This document shows, in pieces, positions 1,159 through 44,329 of a stretch of DNA of 64,000 bases. The notes beneath the pieces were generated by a model. That model saw nothing but the letters and a program-made list of their open reading frames with translations, made no database searches and was not told the DNA's origin. The DNA comes from Escherichia coli (GTDB lineage: Bacteria > Pseudomonadota > Gammaproteobacteria > Enterobacterales > Enterobacteriaceae), in assembly GCF_024502345.1 (NCBI RefSeq), contig NZ_JALDNN010000001.1, one strand, 5' to 3'. Numbering within the stretch: position 1 is the first letter of the stretch; the number at the start of each line of letters is the position of its first letter. The position numbers and the translations under genes are program-made.

Positions 1159-2114
1159 TGAGTAAATCACACCCGCGCTGGCGCTTAGCAAAGAAGATCC
1201 TCACCTGGCTGTTTTTTATCGCGGTGATTGTGTTGCTGGTGGTCTACGCCAAAAAAGTGGACTGGGAAGAGGTCTGGAAGGTCATCCGCGACTACAATCG
1301 CGTTGCGCTGCTTAGTGCGGTCGGGCTGGTGGTCGTCAGCTATCTGATTTACGGCTGCTATGACCTGCTCGCCCGCTTTTACTGCGGTCACAAACTGGCG
1401 AAGCGCCAGGTGATGCTGGTGTCGTTTATCTGCTACGCCTTCAACCTGACGCTCAGTACCTGGGTCGGCGGCATTGGTATGCGCTATCGTTTGTACTCCC
1501 GACTAGGGTTACCGGGCAGCACTATTACGCGGATTTTCTCGCTCAGTATTACCACCAACTGGCTGGGCTATATTTTACTGGCAGGGATTATCTTTACCGC
1601 AGGCGTGGTGGAGTTGCCGGATCACTGGTATGTCGATCAAACTACGCTGCGTATTCTCGGCATTGGCTTACTGATGATTATCGCGGTTTATTTGTGGTTT
1701 TGCGCTTTCGCGAAGCACCGCCATATGACCATCAAAGGGCAAAAGCTGGTGCTGCCTTCATGGAAATTCGCCCTCGCTCAGATGCTGATTTCCAGCGTTA
1801 ACTGGATGGTAATGGGAGCGATAATCTGGCTGTTACTTGGTCAAAGCGTGAACTATTTCTTTGTACTGGGCGTGTTGCTGGTTAGTAGTATTGCTGGTGT
1901 CATCGTGCATATTCCGGCGGGAATTGGTGTGCTGGAAGCGGTGTTTATCGCGCTACTGGCTGGGGAGCATACATCCAAAGGCACAATTATCGCCGCCCTA
2001 CTCGCTTATCGCGTCCTGTATTACTTTATCCCGCTGCTGCTGGCGCTGATCTGTTACCTGCTACTGGAAAGCCAGGCGAAGAAGCTACGGGCGAAAAATG
2101 AAGCGGCGATGTGA
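1158..2114 (+). CDS. ybhN: Inner membrane protein YbhN (UPF0104 / lysyl-PG synthase-like)
   Basis: 318 aa multi-TM ORF; ATGA overlap with clsB stop; matches remembered K-12 YbhN. Confidence 0.9.
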   Translation: MSKSHPRWRLAKKILTWLFFIAVIVLLVVYAKKVDWEEVWKVIRDYNRVALLSAVGLVVVSYLIYGCYDLLARFYCGHKLAKRQVMLVSFICYAFNLTLSTWVGGIGMRYRLYSRLGLPGSTITRIFSLSITTNWLGYILLAGIIFTAGVVELPDHWYVDQTTLRILGIGLLMIIAVYLWFCAFAKHRHMTIKGQKLVLPSWKFALAQMLISSVNWMVMGAIIWLLLGQSVNYFFVLGVLLVSSIAGVIVHIPAGIGVLEAVFIALLAGEHTSKGTIIAALLAYRVLYYFIPLLLALICYLLLESQAKKLRAKNEAAM

Positions 2115-2149
2115 AGTTTAGTTAAGTTCTTTAGTATCTGCATTTACGA

Positions 2150-2863
2150 CTAATGAAAAAAACGCGTATGCCTTTGCCAGACAAGCGTTATAGCTATCGC
2201 GGCAAGTATCCCAAAGAAGCCGATAAAATAGTAATAGAGTGTTAATGCACCTGTAACAGCGCAACGAACCGGACTCCACAACTCTTCACTATGGCATTTT
2301 CCTGCCAGTTCAAGGAGCTTATTTCGTCCATGCGAGATAATGCCTGGCCATAACACAATCATTAAGCAACTTATTACCCAAACGGGTCGTTCACTCATTA
2401 ATGCGGCATTCATGATGATCACCAGGGCCAAACCTGTCAACGTCATCATAATGATAAAACGGTGAGAACCAGGATCAACATTAAATAATAAACCGGCCAG
2501 CATACTGATTAAAAACATCGCGCCCGCAGTGCTGAACACGACGATAATGGCAGGTACAGGAGCTAAACTTGCAACGACAATCGCCACCAAAGAGAGTAAA
2601 AACAGATATATTACGCCTGCGATGACGGCATTTATCTTGTTGATATCCTTACTTAAGCCATACATACAAAGTAATAATAACCCTATGGCGACATACATTG
2701 GTGGTGAATCATATTTGGTTGCCGTAATTTCGAGATACTTAGCACCCCAGGCCAGCCCTGCGGTTGCCACCAAACCTAAAGCGGTAATGAGCCATATACC
2801 GTTTAATATCCTGGTCTCGTGCTGAAAATCTAATTTATTGCTGTTTTGCAAGTATGATTCCAT
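2150..2863 (-). CDS. ybhM: Inner membrane protein YbhM (BAX inhibitor-1 family)
   Basis: 237 aa hydrophobic multi-TM ORF; position and length as in K-12. Confidence 0.85.
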   Translation of the reverse strand: MESYLQNSNKLDFQHETRILNGIWLITALGLVATAGLAWGAKYLEITATKYDSPPMYVAIGLLLLCMYGLSKDINKINAVIAGVIYLFLLSLVAIVVASLAPVPAIIVVFSTAGAMFLISMLAGLLFNVDPGSHRFIIMMTLTGLALVIIMNAALMSERPVWVISCLMIVLWPGIISHGRNKLLELAGKCHSEELWSPVRCAVTGALTLYYYFIGFFGILAAIAITLVWQRHTRFFH

Positions 2864-3026
2864 TCTTTTAGTTGTCCTTATAGAAAAATATTAATATTCA
2901 TCATGAATAAATTTAAACCCACGCATACAAAATACTTTTGTTTTTATGGATACGGAAAACGCTTCCGCTCGGCCATAAGGCATATTTTATACCTGGTACT
3001 TGTTAAGTGTCGTTTTTAGTAAGAAA

Positions 3027-3058
3027 AAAAATCCCGGCACCAGGCCGGGATCAGCAGG
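3027..3058 (-). terminator. Rho-independent terminator downstream of ybhL
   Basis: GC hairpin cccggcaccaggccggg followed by T-run on minus strand. Confidence 0.6.
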
Positions 3059-3068
3059 AAGAAGAGAA

Positions 3069-3773
3069 TTAACGACGATTGCCAAAAATTCGCAGCAACA
3101 TCAGGAACAGGTTGATGAAGTCCAGATACAAGGTTAACGCGCCAAGAATGGAATATTTGCGCAGGTTCGACGTGTCGCGAGTATCAATCTGCTCACCCAT
3201 ATTTTTCAATTTCTGAGTGTCATACGCCGTCAGTCCGACAAAGACAATCACGCCGATGTAGGTAACTGCCCACATCAATGCTTCGCTTTTCAGCCAGAAG
3301 TTGACCAGCGATGCCAGCACAATGCCGATTAACGCCATAAACAGCATATTGCCAAAGCCACTTAAATCGCGCTTCGTGGTGTAACCGTACAGGCTCATTG
3401 CGCCGAACATCCCGGCAGTAACGACGAAGGTACTGGCGATAGAAGCAGCGGTATAAACAATGAAAATACTGGAAAGCGTAAGACCCGTCAGCGCCGAATA
3501 AAGCATAAAGAGCATCGTCGTTACACCTGCGCTCAGCTTTTGAATCATCGCTGATAACACAATAACCAATGCTAATTGCGCGATGATCAGACCGATTAAA
3601 AAGACACGGTTAGTGAACAACAGCTCCATCACGGCCGCGGAATTAGCCGCATACCAGGCAACAAATGCGGTCAGCAACAAGCCAACGGTCATCCAGCCAT
3701 AGACTTGCGCCATATAAGTCTGCAAGCCAGCCCGGGGTTGTACAATTGAATCAGAACGTGGGAATCTGTCCAT
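3069..3773 (-). CDS. ybhL: Inner membrane protein YbhL (BAX inhibitor-1 family)
   Basis: ORF track 3069..3854; start placed at internal MDRFPRS to give 234 aa as remembered for K-12 YbhL. Confidence 0.85.
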   Translation of the reverse strand: MDRFPRSDSIVQPRAGLQTYMAQVYGWMTVGLLLTAFVAWYAANSAAVMELLFTNRVFLIGLIIAQLALVIVLSAMIQKLSAGVTTMLFMLYSALTGLTLSSIFIVYTAASIASTFVVTAGMFGAMSLYGYTTKRDLSGFGNMLFMALIGIVLASLVNFWLKSEALMWAVTYIGVIVFVGLTAYDTQKLKNMGEQIDTRDTSNLRKYSILGALTLYLDFINLFLMLLRIFGNRR

Positions 3774-36980: not shown

Positions 36981-38033
36981 TTACCCGCGACGCGCTTTCA
37001 CTGCGTTCGCCAGTTGACGTAACAGAGCATCGGTATCTTCCCAGCCGATGCAGGCATCGGTGATGCTCTTACCGTAGGCCAGCGGCTCCCCGCTCTCGAG
37101 GCTCTGATTGCCTTCCACCAGATGGCTTTCCACCATCACGCCAATAATGGCCTTTTCGCCACCGGCAATCTGCTGGCAAACGTCAGCACAAACATCCATC
37201 TGCTTTTTGAATTGTTTTGACGAGTTAGCATGGCTGAAATCGATCATCACCTGTGCTGGCAGGCCTGCTTTGTTCAGCCCTTCTTTCACTTCAGCAACGT
37301 GCTTCGCGCTGTAGTTAGGCTCTTTACCGCCGCGCAGAATGATATGGCAATCACCGTTACCGCTGGTATTCACAATCGCCGAATGCCCCCATTTCGTTAC
37401 GGACAGGAAGCAGTGCGGCGCACCGGCGGCATTAATGGCATCGATAGCCACTTTAATCGTACCGTCGGTGCCATTTTTGAAGCCGACCGGACAAGAAAGC
37501 CCTGATGCCAGTTCGCGGTGCACCTGCGATTCGGTGGTACGTGCGCCAATTGCGCCCCAGCTCATCAGGTCAGCGAGATATTGTGGGGTGATCATATCGA
37601 GAAACTCACCCGCCGCTGGCAGACCGCTGTCGTTAATATCAAGCAGCAATTTACGGGCTATACGCAGACCGTCGTTGATCTGGAAGCTGTTATCCATATG
37701 CGGATCGTTAATCAGCCCTTTCCAGCCCACCGTGGTACGCGGCTTTTCAAAATAGACGCGCATTACGATTTCCAGCTCATCTTTCAGCTCTTCACGCAGC
37801 GCCAGCAAGCGAGTGGCATACTCTTTAGCCGCGACAGGATCATGAATTGAGCACGGGCCAATCACCACCAACAGGCGATCATCATTCCCTTTCAGGATTT
37901 TATGGATCGCTTTTCGGACATGGGCAACCGTATTAGCGGCATTTTCAGTAGCGGGGAATTTTTCCAGCAATGCGACAGGAGGAAGTAACTCTTTGATTTC
38001 TTTGATGCGTAAATCGTCGTTCTGATAATTCAT
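36981..38033 (-). CDS. aroG: Phe-sensitive DAHP synthase
   Basis: 350 aa matching remembered AroG. Confidence 0.95.
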   Translation of the reverse strand: MNYQNDDLRIKEIKELLPPVALLEKFPATENAANTVAHVRKAIHKILKGNDDRLLVVIGPCSIHDPVAAKEYATRLLALREELKDELEIVMRVYFEKPRTTVGWKGLINDPHMDNSFQINDGLRIARKLLLDINDSGLPAAGEFLDMITPQYLADLMSWGAIGARTTESQVHRELASGLSCPVGFKNGTDGTIKVAIDAINAAGAPHCFLSVTKWGHSAIVNTSGNGDCHIILRGGKEPNYSAKHVAEVKEGLNKAGLPAQVMIDFSHANSSKQFKKQMDVCADVCQQIAGGEKAIIGVMVESHLVEGNQSLESGEPLAYGKSITDACIGWEDTDALLRQLANAVKARRG

Positions 38034-38103
38034 GTCTGTTCCAGTGTTGCCATACTTATCTTAGTGAATGCAATACCTCCAATCTATATCTTCCGTCAGA
38101 ATG

Positions 38104-38121
38104 TGTAAACGGGGTTTTACA
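38104..38121. promoter_or_regulatory. TyrR box upstream of aroG
   Basis: tgtaaacggggttttaca = TGTAAA-N6-TTTACA palindrome. Confidence 0.7.
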
Positions 38122-38348
38122 CTATGAACGGATTAATCCTGGAATTAGCAAGAAAAACGCCAGATTGTCGCGAAAAACGAGATCTCTCCTACAATTTCTA
38201 ACTGTAACTCCTTTGTTTGTTAATTATTTCAAGATTCTCTGCTGGATTTCTTTGCCTGGCTGAAATCTTAAACCAATGCCTTATATTCACCTGCAAATGC
38301 ACTGTTGGAAGAGGTTATCCGACATAACGACCATAACAGGAGCATCCT

Positions 38349-38729
38349 ATGAAAATGACAAAACTGGCCACACTATTTCTGACTGCCACTCTAAGCCTTG
38401 CCAGCGGTGCCGCACTGGCTGCCGATAGCGGAGCGCAAACCAATAACGGCCAGGCAAACGCCGCAGCTGATGCGGGCCAGGTAGCCCCTGACGCCCGTGA
38501 AAATGTCGCGCCAAATAACGTCGACAATAACGGGGTAAATACCGGTTCTGGCGGCACTATGCTGCATCCGGATGGTTCTTCAATGAACAATGACGGCATG
38601 ACCAAAGATGAAGAGCACAAGAACACCATGTGCAAAGATGGTCGCTGCCCGGATATCAATAAAAAGGTACAAACCGGTGATGGCATCAATAATGATGTCG
38701 ATACCAAAACCGACGGTACCACGCAGTAA
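38349..38729 (+). CDS. ybgS: Secreted protein YbgS
   Basis: 126 aa; signal peptide; low-complexity N/G/D-rich mature part. Confidence 0.9.
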
Positions 38730-38750
38730 CCCTGCAAAATAGCCAATAAT

Positions 38751-38781
38751 GGGAGAGCGGAGTCTCTCCCTTTTAATTTTT
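38751..38781 (+). terminator. Rho-independent terminator after ybgS
   Basis: gggagagcggagtctctccc hairpin + ttttaattttt. Confidence 0.75.
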
Positions 38782-38842
38782 CACTTCTAAAAGCAGTATG
38801 ATGTCATAAAGTTAAGTGAGAATAATTAAGGGATGACTCGTC

Positions 38843-39784
38843 ATGGCGCACTCACACTCACACACGTCCTCACACCTGCCAGAAGATAATAATGCTCGTC
38901 GCTTGTTGTATGCTTTCGGCGTGACTGCCGGGTTTATGCTGGTAGAAGTCATTGGTGGTTTTCTTTCTGGTTCTCTGGCTTTGCTGGCCGATGCGGGTCA
39001 TATGTTGACCGATACTGCCGCCCTGCTTTTCGCTCTACTCGCCGTGCAATTTTCACGTCGTCCTCCCACCATTCGCCACACTTTCGGTTGGCTAAGACTG
39101 ACCACGCTCGCGGCGTTTGTGAATGCCATCGCCCTGGTGGTGATTACCATTTTGATTGTCTGGGAGGCGATAGAACGCTTCCGCACACCGCGTCCGGTCG
39201 AGGGCGGCATGATGATGGCAATTGCCGTGGCTGGGTTGCTGGCAAATCTACTTTCTTTCTGGTTACTTCATCACGGCAGCGAAGAGAAAAACCTCAACGT
39301 ACGAGCAGCGGCACTGCATGTGCTCGGGGACCTGCTGGGTTCGGTTGGGGCTATTATTGCCGCGTTGATTATTATCTGGACCGGCTGGACACCTGCTGAC
39401 CCCATTCTCTCGATACTGGTGTCGCTTCTGGTTCTGCGTAGCGCGTGGCGACTGTTGAAAGATAGCGTGAATGAATTACTTGAGGGTGCACCGGTATCGC
39501 TGGATATCGCTGAACTGAAGCGTCGTATGTGCCGGGAAATCCCGGAAGTCCGCAATGTGCACCATGTGCATGTATGGATGGTAGGCGAGAAGCCGGTGAT
39601 GACGTTGCATGTGCAGGTGATCCCGCCACACGATCACGATGCCTTGTTGGATCAGATCCAACACTACCTGATGGATCACTATCAGATTGAGCACGCCACC
39701 ATTCAGATGGAATATCAACCTTGTCATGGGCCAGACTGCCACCTGAATGAAGGGGTGTCTGGCCATTCACATCATCACCATTAA
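38843..39784 (+). CDS. zitB: Zinc efflux CDF transporter
   Basis: 313 aa; His-rich termini (HSHSH / HSHHHH); six TM. Confidence 0.95.
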
Positions 39785-40500
39785 TGGGACAGCGCGCGTG
39801 AGCCTCTTTCACGTGCGCTGTTGATCCACATCCGGCTGCCGTTGAGCGCAATAAAGGTCAGGATGATGTACTCCAGAGACATGGCGTAAACGCCCTGAAG
39901 TGCAAAAATAACGACGCTAATCACGTTAATAATCACCCACAACAGCCAGTTTTCCACATACTTACGCGTCATCAGAATCATTGCCACGATAGATAACACC
40001 ATCATGCATGAATCCCAGAACGGGAAAGCGTCCGGTTGCAGTTCAGGCATCACAACCTGTAATCCTAATGCTTGCATGATCATGACTGCCACGCGGGTCA
40101 AAAATGCAAACACCGGATTGATAAATACCGTCATCAGACCAATCGAAACAACGCAAACCGCCAACCAGCTTAGCGCCTTCGGCAATGGCAACCAGCGAAT
40201 TTTCAACTCCGCCTCGTTCTGACTGGTTTGTCGCGACCACGCATACCAACCGTAAATATTCGCGGCAAAGAAAAACACCTGTAATAGCAGGCTGGCATAC
40301 AGCTGAATCTGAAAGAAAATAATGCCAAACAAGGTGACGTTGATCAGGCCAAAGAAGTAGTTGCTGATCTTCTCCAGACTGGCAAGGCCAATACACAGCA
40401 ACCCGGCGATCGTGCCTACCGCTTCGATCCATGAGAGATCATAACCGCCTGCTCCTATTGGTATATGTACCAGGATATTCTGCACACTAAAAAAATCCAT
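39781..40500 (-). CDS. pnuC: Nicotinamide riboside transporter
   Basis: 239 aa membrane protein downstream of nadA. Confidence 0.95.
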
Positions 40501-40537
40501 CTTTCCCCCAAAGCGTAACGTTACGCCTTATTATTCG

Positions 40538-41581
40538 TTATCCACGTAGTGTAGCCGCAAAATCCAGCATACGATTGAGCGGCACCAGCGCCCTCTCTCG
40601 CAGCCTTTCATCAACATGAACCTCGTGATTGCTTCCTTCCTGTTCTAATGCCTCTGCGATGGCCTGAAGGCCATTCATGGCCATCCACGGACAATGCGCG
40701 CAGCTGCGGCAGGTTGCACCCTCACCCGCGGTTGGTGCTTCCAGTAACTCTTTATCTGGCACCGCCTGCTGCATTTTGTAGAAAATACCCCGATCGGTTG
40801 CCACAATAAGCCTCTGATGTGGCAATGTTTTCGCAGCAGCGATCAGTTGACTGGTGGAACCGACCGCATCCGCCATATCGACAATAGCTTGTGGTGATTC
40901 TGGATGCACCAGTATGGCAGCATCCGGGTATTCTTCTTGCAAGCGGGTTAACGCCTGAGTCTTAAATTCATCATGCACAATGCAGGCACCCTGCCAGCAT
41001 AAAATGTCTGCGCCCGTCTGTTTTTGCACGTAACGCCCCAGATGTTTGTCGGGTGCCCAGATGATTTTTTCACCCAAACTATCCAGATGATCAATAAGTT
41101 CGACGGCAATGCTTGAAGTTACCACCCAATCTGCCCGCGCTTTTACCGCAGCAGAAGTGTTGGCGTAGACGACGACAGTATGATCGGGATGGGCATCGCA
41201 AAATGCGTTAAATTCTTCAACAGGGCAGCCGAGATCCAGTGAACATTCAGCCTGAAGTGTCGGCATCAGAATTGTTTTTTCCGGACTGAGAATTTTGGCG
41301 GTTTCTCCCATAAATCTCACCCCAGCGACTAACAACGTAGAGGCGGGATGCTTTGCACCGAAGCGCGCCATTTCCAAAGAATCAGAAATGCAGCCACCGG
41401 TTTCTTCTGCCAGTTGTTGAATTTCGGGATCGGTATAGTAGTGGGCAACCATCACCGCATTACGTTCTTTTAGCAGACGTTTTATCTTCTCGCGGTAATA
41501 CGCTTTTTCATCAATGCTTAACGGCGTCGGCTTCGGGGGGAAAGGATAAATCGCCGTGTCTGGATCAAACATCACGCTCAT
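40538..41581 (-). CDS. nadA: Quinolinate synthase A
   Basis: 347 aa; conserved Cys ligands; matches remembered NadA. Confidence 0.95.
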
Positions 41582-41653
41582 CTTACCATCTCGTTTTACA
41601 GGCTTAACGTTAAAACCGACATTAGCGTGATATTCGCTGTTATCGGTGTGATT

Positions 41654-41671
41654 TGTTTTATATGCTAAACA
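41654..41671. promoter_or_regulatory. NadR (NAD box) operator of nadA-pnuC
   Basis: tgttttatatgctaaaca = TGTTTA-N6-TAAACA palindrome. Confidence 0.7.
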
Positions 41672-41858
41672 AGATAGTCGAATGGTGGGGAAAAGTCACT
41701 CGAATTACGTATGAGATGCCGAATGCCACACTTTGCGTCTTATTCCTCCGACGTAAAGTTGTTTACGCAGCAAGCGCGGAGTATGTCATCAGGGTCAAGA
41801 ATTGAAATTGAGAGATGCCTGAATAGCAAAAAAGCGCCTTTAGGGCGCTTTTTTACAT

Positions 41859-41978
41859 TGGTGGGTCGTGCAGGATGACTCGCTTCGCTCGCCCTTCGGG
41901 CCGTCGCCGCGAGCGGCTCCGTTGTTTCGCTGCGCTCAACTCAAACCTGCTGCAGGTTCGAATCTTTGAGTATCGCAG
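41859..41978. repeat. tRNA-derived fragment block distal to lysQ
   Basis: 17 nt copy of tRNA-Lys 3' end (tggtgggtcgtgcagga) plus inverted T-arm-like gcaggttcgaatc; the 41823-41877 segment duplicates the terminator + tRNA 3' end at 41989-42031. Confidence 0.6.
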
Positions 41979-41984
41979 ATAGCA

Positions 41985-42010
41985 AAAAAGCGCCTTTAGG
42001 GCGCTTTTTT
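41985..42010 (-). terminator. Rho-independent terminator of the lysT tRNA operon
   Basis: aaaaaagcgcc-ctaa-aggcgctttttt hairpin directly 3' of last tRNA; second copy at about 41825-41850. Confidence 0.75.
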
Positions 42011-42014
42011 ACAT

Positions 42015-42090
42015 TGGTGGGTCGTGCAGGATTCGAACCTGCGACCAATTGATTAAAAGTCAACTGCTCTACCAACTGAGCTAACGACCC
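42015..42090 (-). tRNA. lysQ: tRNA-Lys (anticodon UUU)
   Basis: Exact 76 nt match to remembered E. coli tRNA-Lys incl. CCA; anticodon loop CUUUUAA. Confidence 0.95.
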
Positions 42091-42123
42091 CTTGCGGGAT
42101 TATGCTGCTTTAATCATTCAGGA

Positions 42124-42199
42124 TGGTGGGTCGTGCAGGATTCGAACCTGCGACCAATTGATTAAAAGTCAACTGCTCTACCAACTGAGCTAACGACCC
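42124..42199 (-). tRNA. lysZ: tRNA-Lys (anticodon UUU)
   Basis: Identical 76 nt tRNA-Lys copy. Confidence 0.95.
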
Positions 42200-42247
42200 A
42201 TACGGGTGTTACCTGAAAGATTTTTACTCGGGGCCAATCTTTAAGAT

Positions 42248-42323
42248 TGGTGGGTCGTGCAGGATTCGAACCTGCGACCAATTGATTAAAAGTCAACTGC
42301 TCTACCAACTGAGCTAACGACCC
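42248..42323 (-). tRNA. lysY: tRNA-Lys (anticodon UUU)
   Basis: Identical 76 nt tRNA-Lys copy. Confidence 0.95.
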
Positions 42324-42326
42324 GAG

Positions 42327-42402
42327 TGGTGGGTGATGACGGGATCGAACCGCCGACCCCCTCCTTGTAAGGGAGGTGCTCTCCCAGCTGAGCTAATCAC
42401 CC
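42327..42402 (-). tRNA. valZ: tRNA-Val (anticodon UAC)
   Basis: 76 nt match to remembered tRNA-Val(UAC); 3 nt spacer to lysY. Confidence 0.95.
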
Positions 42403-42453
42403 GATACTGCGCTAGATACTACAAACTACTTCCACCGAACCCACCGTAATTAG

Positions 42454-42529
42454 TGGTGGGTCGTGCAGGATTCGAACCTGCGACCAATTGATTAAAAGTC
42501 AACTGCTCTACCAACTGAGCTAACGACCC
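42454..42529 (-). tRNA. lysW: tRNA-Lys (anticodon UUU)
   Basis: Identical 76 nt tRNA-Lys copy. Confidence 0.95.
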
Positions 42530-42531
42530 GG

Positions 42532-42607
42532 TGGTGGGTGATGACGGGATCGAACCGCCGACCCCCTCCTTGTAAGGGAGGTGCTCTCCCAGCTGAGCTA
42601 ATCACCC
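42532..42607 (-). tRNA. valT: tRNA-Val (anticodon UAC)
   Basis: 76 nt tRNA-Val copy; 2 nt spacer to lysW. Confidence 0.95.
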
Positions 42608-42642
42608 GATACTACGCTGGATACTACAACTAACTATGTTAG

Positions 42643-42703
42643 TGGTGGGTCGTGCAGGATGACTCGACTTCGTCTCGCCCTTCGGGCCGTTGCTGATGCA
42701 ACG
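42643..42703 (-). repeat. tRNA-Lys 3'-end-derived pseudo-tRNA fragment in lysT-valT spacer
   Basis: tggtgggtcgtgcagga + tgactcg(a)cttcg(t)ctcgcccttcgggccg, near-identical to the fragment at 41859. Confidence 0.6.
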
Positions 42704-42742
42704 TTATCCTTCACGTTTTACTACCGCTTCCACCTTAGCGAT

Positions 42743-42818
42743 TGGTGGGTCGTGCAGGATTCGAACCTGCGACCAATTGATTAAAAGTCAACTGCTCTAC
42801 CAACTGAGCTAACGACCC
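42743..42818 (-). tRNA. lysT: tRNA-Lys (anticodon UUU)
   Basis: Identical 76 nt tRNA-Lys copy; first gene of operon. Confidence 0.95.
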
Positions 42819-42982: not shown

Positions 42983-43774
42983 TTACATCGCGTTCAGACG
43001 TTTTTGTGCCTGTTTAGCGCCATCAGTACCAGGGTATTTACTGATAACCTGCTGGTATACGGCTTTCGCTTTTGCGGTGTCACCTTTGTCCTGCATGATG
43101 ACGCCGACTTTAAACATCGCATCTGCAGCCTTTGGTGACTTCGGATAGTTTTTCACTACCGAAGCAAAATAGTACGCCGCATCATCTTTTTTACCCTTGT
43201 TGTAGTTTAACTGACCCAGCCAATAATTGGCGTTTGGCAGGTAAGTTGAATCAGGGTAATTTTTGATGAAATTCTGAAATGCCACCATTGCGTCATCCTG
43301 GCGGGATTTATCCTGCACCAGCGCAATAGCTGCATTGTAATCCGTGTTTGCATCACCGCTTTTCACCGGCGCGCCAGCATTCGCAGTACCAGCATCAGCT
43401 GTCGGCGTCGTTGATGCCGCCGCACCGCTTTGATCGACGCTGGTTGATTGCGCCGCTGCACCACCGCTGCTGAGGCTATCGATCTGCAACAGGATCTGCT
43501 TTTGCCGCTCCACGACCTGATTCAGTTGATACTGATTTTCCTGAATCTGACCACGCAGGGAATCAATATCGGATTGATTATCAGAGAGTTGTTGCTGGAG
43601 TTGGGTTAAAAGCTGGCTGTGAGCATTAGAAATACGCTCAAGTTGAGTGACGCGGTCTTCGACCGAGCCTGAGCCGACACTACTGATTGGTGCCTGAGCA
43701 AAAGCGGCCCAGGGGGCCGCTATACCAACCAGTAACGACAGACTCAATAGTTGATGTCTGAAGTTACTGCTCAT
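42983..43774 (-). CDS. cpoB: Cell division coordinator CpoB (YbgF), TPR protein
   Basis: 263 aa; signal peptide, coiled-coil, C-terminal TPR. Confidence 0.93.
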   Translation of the reverse strand: MSSNFRHQLLSLSLLVGIAAPWAAFAQAPISSVGSGSVEDRVTQLERISNAHSQLLTQLQQQLSDNQSDIDSLRGQIQENQYQLNQVVERQKQILLQIDSLSSGGAAAQSTSVDQSGAAASTTPTADAGTANAGAPVKSGDANTDYNAAIALVQDKSRQDDAMVAFQNFIKNYPDSTYLPNANYWLGQLNYNKGKKDDAAYYFASVVKNYPKSPKAADAMFKVGVIMQDKGDTAKAKAVYQQVISKYPGTDGAKQAQKRLNAM

Positions 43775-43783
43775 GCAATTCTC

Positions 43784-44329
<546 letters not shown>

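Follow-up and report, generated by a model that had tools for sequence, protein, structure and literature searches.

How do two genes that meet tail to tail, with no DNA between them, end their transcripts? The question is raised by zitB and pnuC in a 64,000-nucleotide stretch of the Escherichia coli contig NZ_JALDNN010000001.1 (assembly GCF_024502345.1), which we call the window. The original prediction, made from the sequence alone, was that these convergent genes share overlapping stop codons with no intervening terminator and that their mRNAs overlap in antisense at the 3' ends.

zitB and pnuC share bases of their stop codons

Positions 39780-39785 of the plus strand read a-TTAA-t, and the tetramer at 39781-39784 holds both stop codons. 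zitB ends with TAA at 39782-39784, and pnuC with the TAA read on the opposite strand from 39783 to 39781, which gives a 4-nt overlap of the coding sequences and stops with 2 nt in common. zitB (38843-39784, plus strand) encodes a 313-residue zinc exporter of the CDF family, identified from the list of open reading frames, Pfam, and the RefSeq annotation of K-12 and O145. The protein contains Pfam domains Cation_efflux at residues 21-213 (E = 6e-51) and ZT_dimer at residues 227-290. pnuC (39781-40500, minus strand) encodes a nicotinamide riboside transporter of 239 residues, identified from the open reading frames, Pfam and identity to K-12 PnuC, with the NMN_transporter domain at residues 23-226 (E = 2e-49). 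The Pfam scores of both proteins are above the gathering score. zitB and pnuC are genuine, unrelated transporter genes on opposite strands, and with two real genes lying tail to tail and TTAA as the junction tetramer, the arrangement is a 4-nt convergent stop-codon overlap.

The comparison with K-12 that had been suggested as a check gave the same result. PnuC of the window is 100% identical to K-12 PnuC (WP_000345410.1), and at the K-12 locus (L001) RefSeq places zitB at 1944..2885 on the plus strand and pnuC at 2882..3601 on the minus strand, an identical 4-nt overlap with no difference from the window. RefSeq also has the two genes in the same overlapping arrangement in O145:H28. The gene names, coordinates, TTAA palindrome and shared stops of the original prediction are all correct by direct reading, the open reading frames and the K-12 annotation. 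If one of the genes truly stopped elsewhere, there would be no real overlap. However, both stops are the first in-frame stops past conserved tails, PGAP annotation gives the same ends, and full-length homologues share the end position in the 92 sequences described below. We rule out a mis-annotated stop because the gene ends are conserved, and see practically no chance of it.

nadA (40538-41581, minus strand; open reading frames and RefSeq annotation) precedes pnuC on the minus strand with a gap of 37 nt. The two are presumably transcribed together as a nadA-pnuC operon, which would be the source of the transcript reading into zitB. Downstream of nadA, 41859-42818 of the minus strand holds seven tRNA genes and two RtT RNA matches, followed after the cluster by a CpoB/ybgF thermometer element (43745-43883, minus strand; 140 bits). 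The tRNA genes are annotated as Lys and Val in related genomes, and the copy number and order of tRNA-Lys and tRNA-Val vary among the E. coli strains inspected. On the other side of the pair, an open reading frame for 143 residues (38315-38746, minus strand) runs antisense to ybgS (38349-38729, plus strand), a gene rich in Ala, Gly and Asn, and is almost certainly a spurious shadow of it.

The zero-spacer junction is old

An 801-nt query spanning the junction was compared with 5426 complete E. coli genomes. A match was found in 5425 of them, and in 5424 it covers at least 80% of the query length. The best match is the O145:H28 strain RM12761 (99.9% identity), and K-12 strains match at 99.5%. 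zitB of RM12761 (L002, 1950-2885) is 6 nt, or two codons, shorter than zitB of the window (38843-39784) and of K-12; the indel maps before L002 position 2501, upstream of the 801-nt query and outside the C-terminal third of the gene. Strain 2015C-3108 (NZ_CP027307.1; L003 2505-3471) has a deletion of about 630 bp across the junction, judging from its shortened CDS lengths. This deletion takes the 3' ends of zitB and pnuC, both annotated as pseudogenes, so simultaneous loss of the two transporters is tolerated.

To reach relatives, species-representative genomes were scanned at the DNA level with a back-translated PnuC motif, which yielded 120 loci. The comparison set contains 92 sequences, the window plus 91 species representatives from Enterobacteriaceae and Erwiniaceae, with pnuC and zitB adjacent and matched over their full length. 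Its genera include Citrobacter, Salmonella, Klebsiella, Raoultella, Enterobacter, Kosakonia, Kluyvera, Lelliottia, Buttiauxella, Cedecea, Pluralibacter, Siccibacter, Pantoea, Erwinia and Tatumella. The junction spacing lies between -9 and +2 nt in 92/92 sequences, and 69 of the 92 have the 4-nt overlap, as TTAA (36), CTAA (17), TTAG (9) or CTAG (7). TCAnTGA (-7) is found in 12 sequences, directly abutting stops in 7, a gap of +1 or +2 in 3 and a spacing of -9 in 1. Over the same set, PnuC identity to E. coli drops to about 68%, so the zero-spacer junction is ancient and stable while the stop codons themselves drift. Judged from these sequences, the tightness of the junction exceeds chance, and the two genes appear to have lain tail to tail without a spacer since before Enterobacteriaceae and Erwiniaceae split.

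Several other loci showed unusual arrangements. L101 and L106 have seemingly loose junctions and frameshifted matches, and L118 has a 36-nt spacer between the genes. One open reading frame apparently extends 122-222 nt into its partner in L014 (Pantoea stewartii), L059 (Erwinia persicina NBRC 102418) and L123; such run-on frames could come from the loss of a stop codon, from a frameshift or from misassembly. In another E. persicina strain (L036) the overlap is the normal 4 nt, and its longer pnuC tail carries a different GC-rich hairpin. A 440-nt contig in the assembly of the actinobacterium Rothia nasisuis (L015) encodes a PnuC fragment 86% identical to that of E. coli next to a Salmonella-like zitB tail, and is most likely enterobacterial contamination. 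Kushneria pakistanensis (L023) has a PnuC with 78% identity and no adjacent zitB, which suggests transfer or contamination.

Conservation of this kind could have a neutral origin, in which the overlap results from stop-codon drift without regulatory meaning and any hairpins at the junction are side effects of conserved C-terminal peptides. Overlaps of four bases are the modal class of overlaps, with CTAA, TTAA, CTAG and TTAG as the convergent tetramers, and they fit a model of stop-codon mutation (Lillo and Krakauer 2007; PMC2174442). The junction of zitB and pnuC does drift among these four tetramers, TCAnTGA, abutting stops and gaps of +1 or +2, in keeping with such an origin. What weighs against it is found in the hairpins themselves.

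A GC-rich stem-loop lies past each stop codon

The statement that there is no intervening terminator is literally true, but it is misleading: directly 3' of each stop, in the coding tail of the partner gene, lies a GC-rich stem-loop resembling a terminator. The first, H1 (39788-39822, plus strand), begins 3 nt past the zitB stop, within the last 13 codons of pnuC and beyond the NMN_transporter domain. Its 15-bp GC-rich stem pairs 39788-39802 with 39808-39822 around a 5-nt loop. In the zitB sense, H1 has a folding energy of -26.7 kcal/mol (z = -4.9), versus -20.2 kcal/mol (z = -2.7) in the pnuC sense, and one pair that is G-U in the zitB sense becomes an A-C mismatch in the other. The second, H2 (39729-39764, minus strand), starts 16 nt past the end of pnuC, where zitB encodes G-P-D-C...S-G-H beyond its last Pfam domain. 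It has a stem of GGCCAGAC and GUCUGGCC with an internal loop; the GC-rich stem is 8 bp in E. coli and reaches 11-12 bp in relatives. Both hairpins are supported by folding, pair counts and synonymous controls. Within 38000-41800, no Rfam family matches at E up to 1.

One way to read these hairpins is as canonical Rho-independent terminators embedded in the partner's coding region, each stopping a transcript precisely at the hairpin. In E. coli, 58 convergent overlaps were counted; any Rho-independent terminator must then sit in the partner's coding sequence, and one is predicted in 21/58 (PMC2174442). The first half of an intrinsic terminator, a GC-rich stem-loop shortly past the stop, is present at both sites, at 3 nt and 16 nt. 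The second half, a U-rich tract of about 7-8 nt immediately following the stem, is absent at both: the tail of H1 is UUGAUCC, a weak U tract, and that of H2 is CAUGACAAGG, with no U tract. In most species, 1-3 U are found in the 8 nt after the hairpins. Erwinia, Buttiauxella and Cedecea relatives do have UUUU after H1, and H1 of several Erwinia species, a short GC stem with UUUU after it, comes close to a canonical terminator. A consensus terminator scan called neither H1 nor H2; on the plus strand, its call closest to the junction marks the end of ybgS (38751-38770). For MG1655 783,600-784,099, where the junction falls at about 783,882-783,885, the Term-seq tables of Adams et al. (PMC7815308) contain neither a 3' end nor a Rho-termination region; low expression may account for the missing 3' end. 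We regard precise stops at embedded Rho-independent terminators as unlikely.

Other records of 3' ends and sequence signals were also consulted. Neither zitB nor pnuC is mentioned in the SMRT-Cappable-seq supplements or in the transcriptional-interference supplements (PMC10349824). Any C-over-G bias of the kind seen at rut sites is weak downstream of H1 and H2. The only nearby Term-seq entry is the primary 3' end of ybgS (PMC7815308), at MG1655 784,890 on the minus strand, 67 nt upstream of zitB. This end agrees with the ybgS intrinsic terminator of the window (38751-38780, plus strand; GGGAGAG-CGGAGT-CTCTCCC then TTTTAATTTT), which lies 60-70 nt upstream of the zitB start.

As for terminators inside the coding regions, the finding named beforehand as able to overturn the original prediction, the outcome is divided. 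H1 and H2 lie there as predicted hairpins, conserved with covariation and stabilized at synonymous sites, but they have no canonical U tracts. Each has the form of a protective stem-loop of a Rho-dependent transcript, being stable, close to the gene end and lacking a U tract.

The stems are maintained at synonymous sites

RNAalifold, run on the ragged 92-sequence alignment, returned no consensus pairs, and pairs were instead counted on the named structures. The species are related by phylogeny, hence these counts are not independent, and with that reservation 81.8% of cells are paired in the H1 alignment (A1, 92 sequences) versus 25-35% when the partner is slid by an odd number of positions. 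Slides of 2 nt leave about 60% paired, reflecting the GC-repeat of the stem. Seven H1 pairs have changes on both sides. In the H2 alignment (A2, 64 Enterobacteriaceae), 81.7% of cells are paired versus 23-47% for slid partners, with a covariation score of 0.266 versus 0.03-0.10. Both sides have changed in 54 cells of H2 versus 12-27 for slid partners, and 6 pairs show such changes; one example pair is GC in 28 sequences, CG in 13, AU in 3, GU in 4 and UG in 4. Compensatory changes are already visible within Escherichia, where the window and L032 differ in H1 (ACAGCG...CGCTGT versus ATAGCG...CGCTAT) and in H2 (GGCCAGAC...GTCTGGCC versus GGCCGGAT...ATCCGGCC).

In our reading of A1 and A2, third codon positions in both stems pair with third positions, and first with second, so that the pairs that covary are synonymous sites, free of constraint from the peptide. 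H1 and H2 thus have the compensatory changes beyond coding that mark a conserved structured RNA element, among species that are related and in an alignment with no RNAalifold consensus.

The two stems also differ in the strand that they favor. The central stem of H1 has 61 G-U pairs in the zitB sense versus 10 A-C (A-C being G-U in the pnuC sense), and H2 has 60 G-U pairs in the pnuC sense versus 17 A-C. Since these asymmetries point in opposite directions within only about 50 nt of each other, no uniform strand bias can account for both. A single shared bidirectional terminator was considered as well, and is ruled out by two hairpins with opposite strand preference.

Synonymous controls were made by redrawing the codons of the last 16 positions of pnuC and the last 25 of zitB, species by species, keeping the peptide and taking codon usage from pnuC and zitB themselves. 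Against these shuffles, the terminal windows overall have a mean z of -1.4 to -1.7, and 92-96% of species are more stable than their controls. For H1 in the zitB sense, the real sequence beats the controls in 93-96% of species (mean z -1.6 to -1.7), with a mean energy of -21.4 versus -14.9 kcal/mol. For H2 in the pnuC sense, it does so in 92% of species (mean z -1.5 to -1.6; -29.1 versus -23.5 kcal/mol). Nine interior windows of the same genes have a mean z of about -0.7 to +0.6, with about 26-74% of species above their controls in stability. The signal of each terminal window is stronger in the sense of the partner's transcript. The H2 controls are themselves more stable in the pnuC sense (-23.5 versus -18.1 kcal/mol), so composition explains some of the strand asymmetry.

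These results bear directly on the neutral origin raised above. Both tail peptides, SARERGSRA of PnuC and the Cys/His-rich GPDC...SGH of ZitB, are conserved and account for some of the pairing on their own, and the energy of synonymous controls is still about -15 kcal/mol. The peptides could be kept for protein reasons. Against drift with side effects, the real sequences exceed peptide-preserving controls in stability in 92-96% of species while interior windows do not, and compensatory double changes occur at third-to-third pairs. Providencia adds a further point, as its tail retains a similar peptide but not the hairpin. In three genomes of this genus, pnuC has no zitB next to it and the homologous PnuC tail is W-I-K-S-A-K-x-N-G-S-x-P-L-S. 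Arg-to-Lys and Ala-to-Pro differences abolish the GC palindrome, and the folding energy of this tail is only -4 to -15 kcal/mol. We therefore doubt that neutral compaction explains the locus. The comparisons above give us moderate to good confidence that H1 and H2 are under selection at the RNA level.

Pantoea was seen to differ at the position of H2. ZitB tails of this genus (L056, L067, L049 and others) are without GPDC...SGH and carry a different, perfect 10-bp inverted repeat, CAGCGCAGCA ... TGCTGCGCTG, in the place of H2, about 25-60 nt before the zitB stop. It looks as if Pantoea has replaced the hairpin, not lost it.

Antisense overlap of the two mRNAs

The mutual 3' antisense overlap of the mRNAs that was originally predicted follows from the geometry of the genes and agrees with a published survey. 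ExcludonFinder, an RNA-seq survey of 2025, counts pnuC-zitB as one of 165 convergent pairs whose transcripts overlap in at least 50% of 58 MG1655 transcriptomes (PMC12288877). Because the coding sequences overlap, this criterion is satisfied almost automatically whenever zitB and pnuC are both expressed.

Being named among the convergent excludons of MG1655 (PMC12288877), the pair might be thought to repress itself mutually, with the obligatory antisense overlap acting on zitB and nadA-pnuC through polymerase collision or RNase III cleavage of a 3' duplex. The geometry would supply complementarity of at least 4 nt and probably about 94 nt. However, inclusion in the survey needs only that both overlapping genes be expressed, and hairpins right after the stops would limit read-through, not promote it. 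Zinc export and nicotinamide riboside uptake have no functional link that we know of, which also counts against mutual repression. The literature searched contained no data for pnuC-zitB on reciprocal, mutually exclusive expression or on processing of their duplex by RNase III. An excludon acting in this manner seems to us rather improbable.

A model for 3'-end formation

The explanation that we favor, and consider probable, is that H1 and H2 are 3'-end-defining or protective stem-loops, each placed in the tail of the partner gene of an ancient zero-spacer pair. With no DNA between zitB and pnuC, the signals for the 3' end of either transcript would have to sit inside the coding tail of the other gene, beyond its Pfam-defined domain. 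A polymerase on zitB would pass the stop codon and immediately transcribe H1 (39788-39822), and a polymerase on nadA-pnuC would pass the pnuC stop and transcribe H2 (39764-39729). Most likely, the stem-loops would then define or protect the mature 3' ends of the mRNAs. From the folding and covariation, we propose H1 as a candidate 3' stem-loop of zitB mRNA and H2 as the corresponding candidate for nadA-pnuC mRNA.

Two routes to such ends can be imagined. H1 and H2 may be weak intrinsic terminators. More likely, they would act as exonuclease barriers, with termination, probably by Rho, occurring downstream in the untranslated antisense RNA and the transcript then being trimmed back to the hairpin. 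In Rho-dependent E. coli mRNAs, steady-state 3' ends are marked by stem-loops without U tracts (Dar and Sorek 2018; PMC6061677), and this model is favored because the U tracts of H1 and H2 are weak. The analysis shows the overlap and its conservation, and the two hairpins with their covariation and synonymous-site signal; the role of the hairpins in RNA 3'-end formation and the termination route are what we infer from these. If both mRNAs do end at the hairpins, they would be complementary over about 94 nt (39729-39822).

A stronger version of this model can be formulated, in which the locus is a reciprocal, interlocked 3'-end module. The coding of each protein tail beyond its domain would have been molded into a stem-loop by which the partner's mRNA ends or is stabilized, and mutual dependence would fix the zero-spacer junction in both Enterobacteriaceae and Erwiniaceae. 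Through the duplex of about 94 nt, zinc export and NAD-precursor uptake could even be coupled after transcription. We offer this version as speculation that is probably wrong in its full form.

The overlap as first described matters little, being a 4-nt tail-to-tail arrangement of a textbook type. What the analysis adds is modest: a clean example of how genes without a spacer may solve the 3'-end problem, with stem-loops in the partner's extra-domain tail that have long been kept by covariation at synonymous sites. The absence of an intergenic spacer should not be read as the absence of a terminator. The mRNA of a neighboring gene can constrain C-terminal tails and synonymous sites that look neutral. 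This would matter in the design of recoded genomes or deletions, where altering the 3' end of pnuC would remove the stem-loop of zitB, and altering that of zitB would remove the stem-loop of pnuC.

Comparison with known systems

The overlap of zitB and pnuC is real, ancient and ordinary, and is already annotated and listed as an overlapping pair. Its geometry, with 2 nt of the stops shared, is identical to that of the 4-nt convergent overlaps described earlier (PMC2174442), with no difference in kind. The additions made here are the depth of conservation, over two families of Enterobacterales, and the evidence of selection on both embedded hairpins.

The pair is itself listed among convergent excludons (PMC12288877). 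The regulatory meaning of an excludon lies in exclusive expression or RNase III processing, whereas for pnuC-zitB the survey reports overlapping transcripts. Protective stem-loops of Rho-dependent transcripts (PMC6061677) resemble H1 and H2 in being GC-rich, stable, close to a stop codon and without a U-rich tail. The 3' ends in that study were mapped and depend on Rho and exonucleases, whereas H1 and H2 are known from sequence and lie inside the coding sequence of another gene.

Bidirectional intrinsic terminators provide the last comparison, since there, too, one short region serves 3'-end formation of both convergent transcripts. Providencia has a canonical one in the spacer downstream of pnuC, made of an A-tract, a GC-stem and a U-tract. 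In contrast, zitB and pnuC have no spacer; they have two hairpins, one per transcript, neither flanked by A and U tracts and each tuned by its G-U pairs to one strand.
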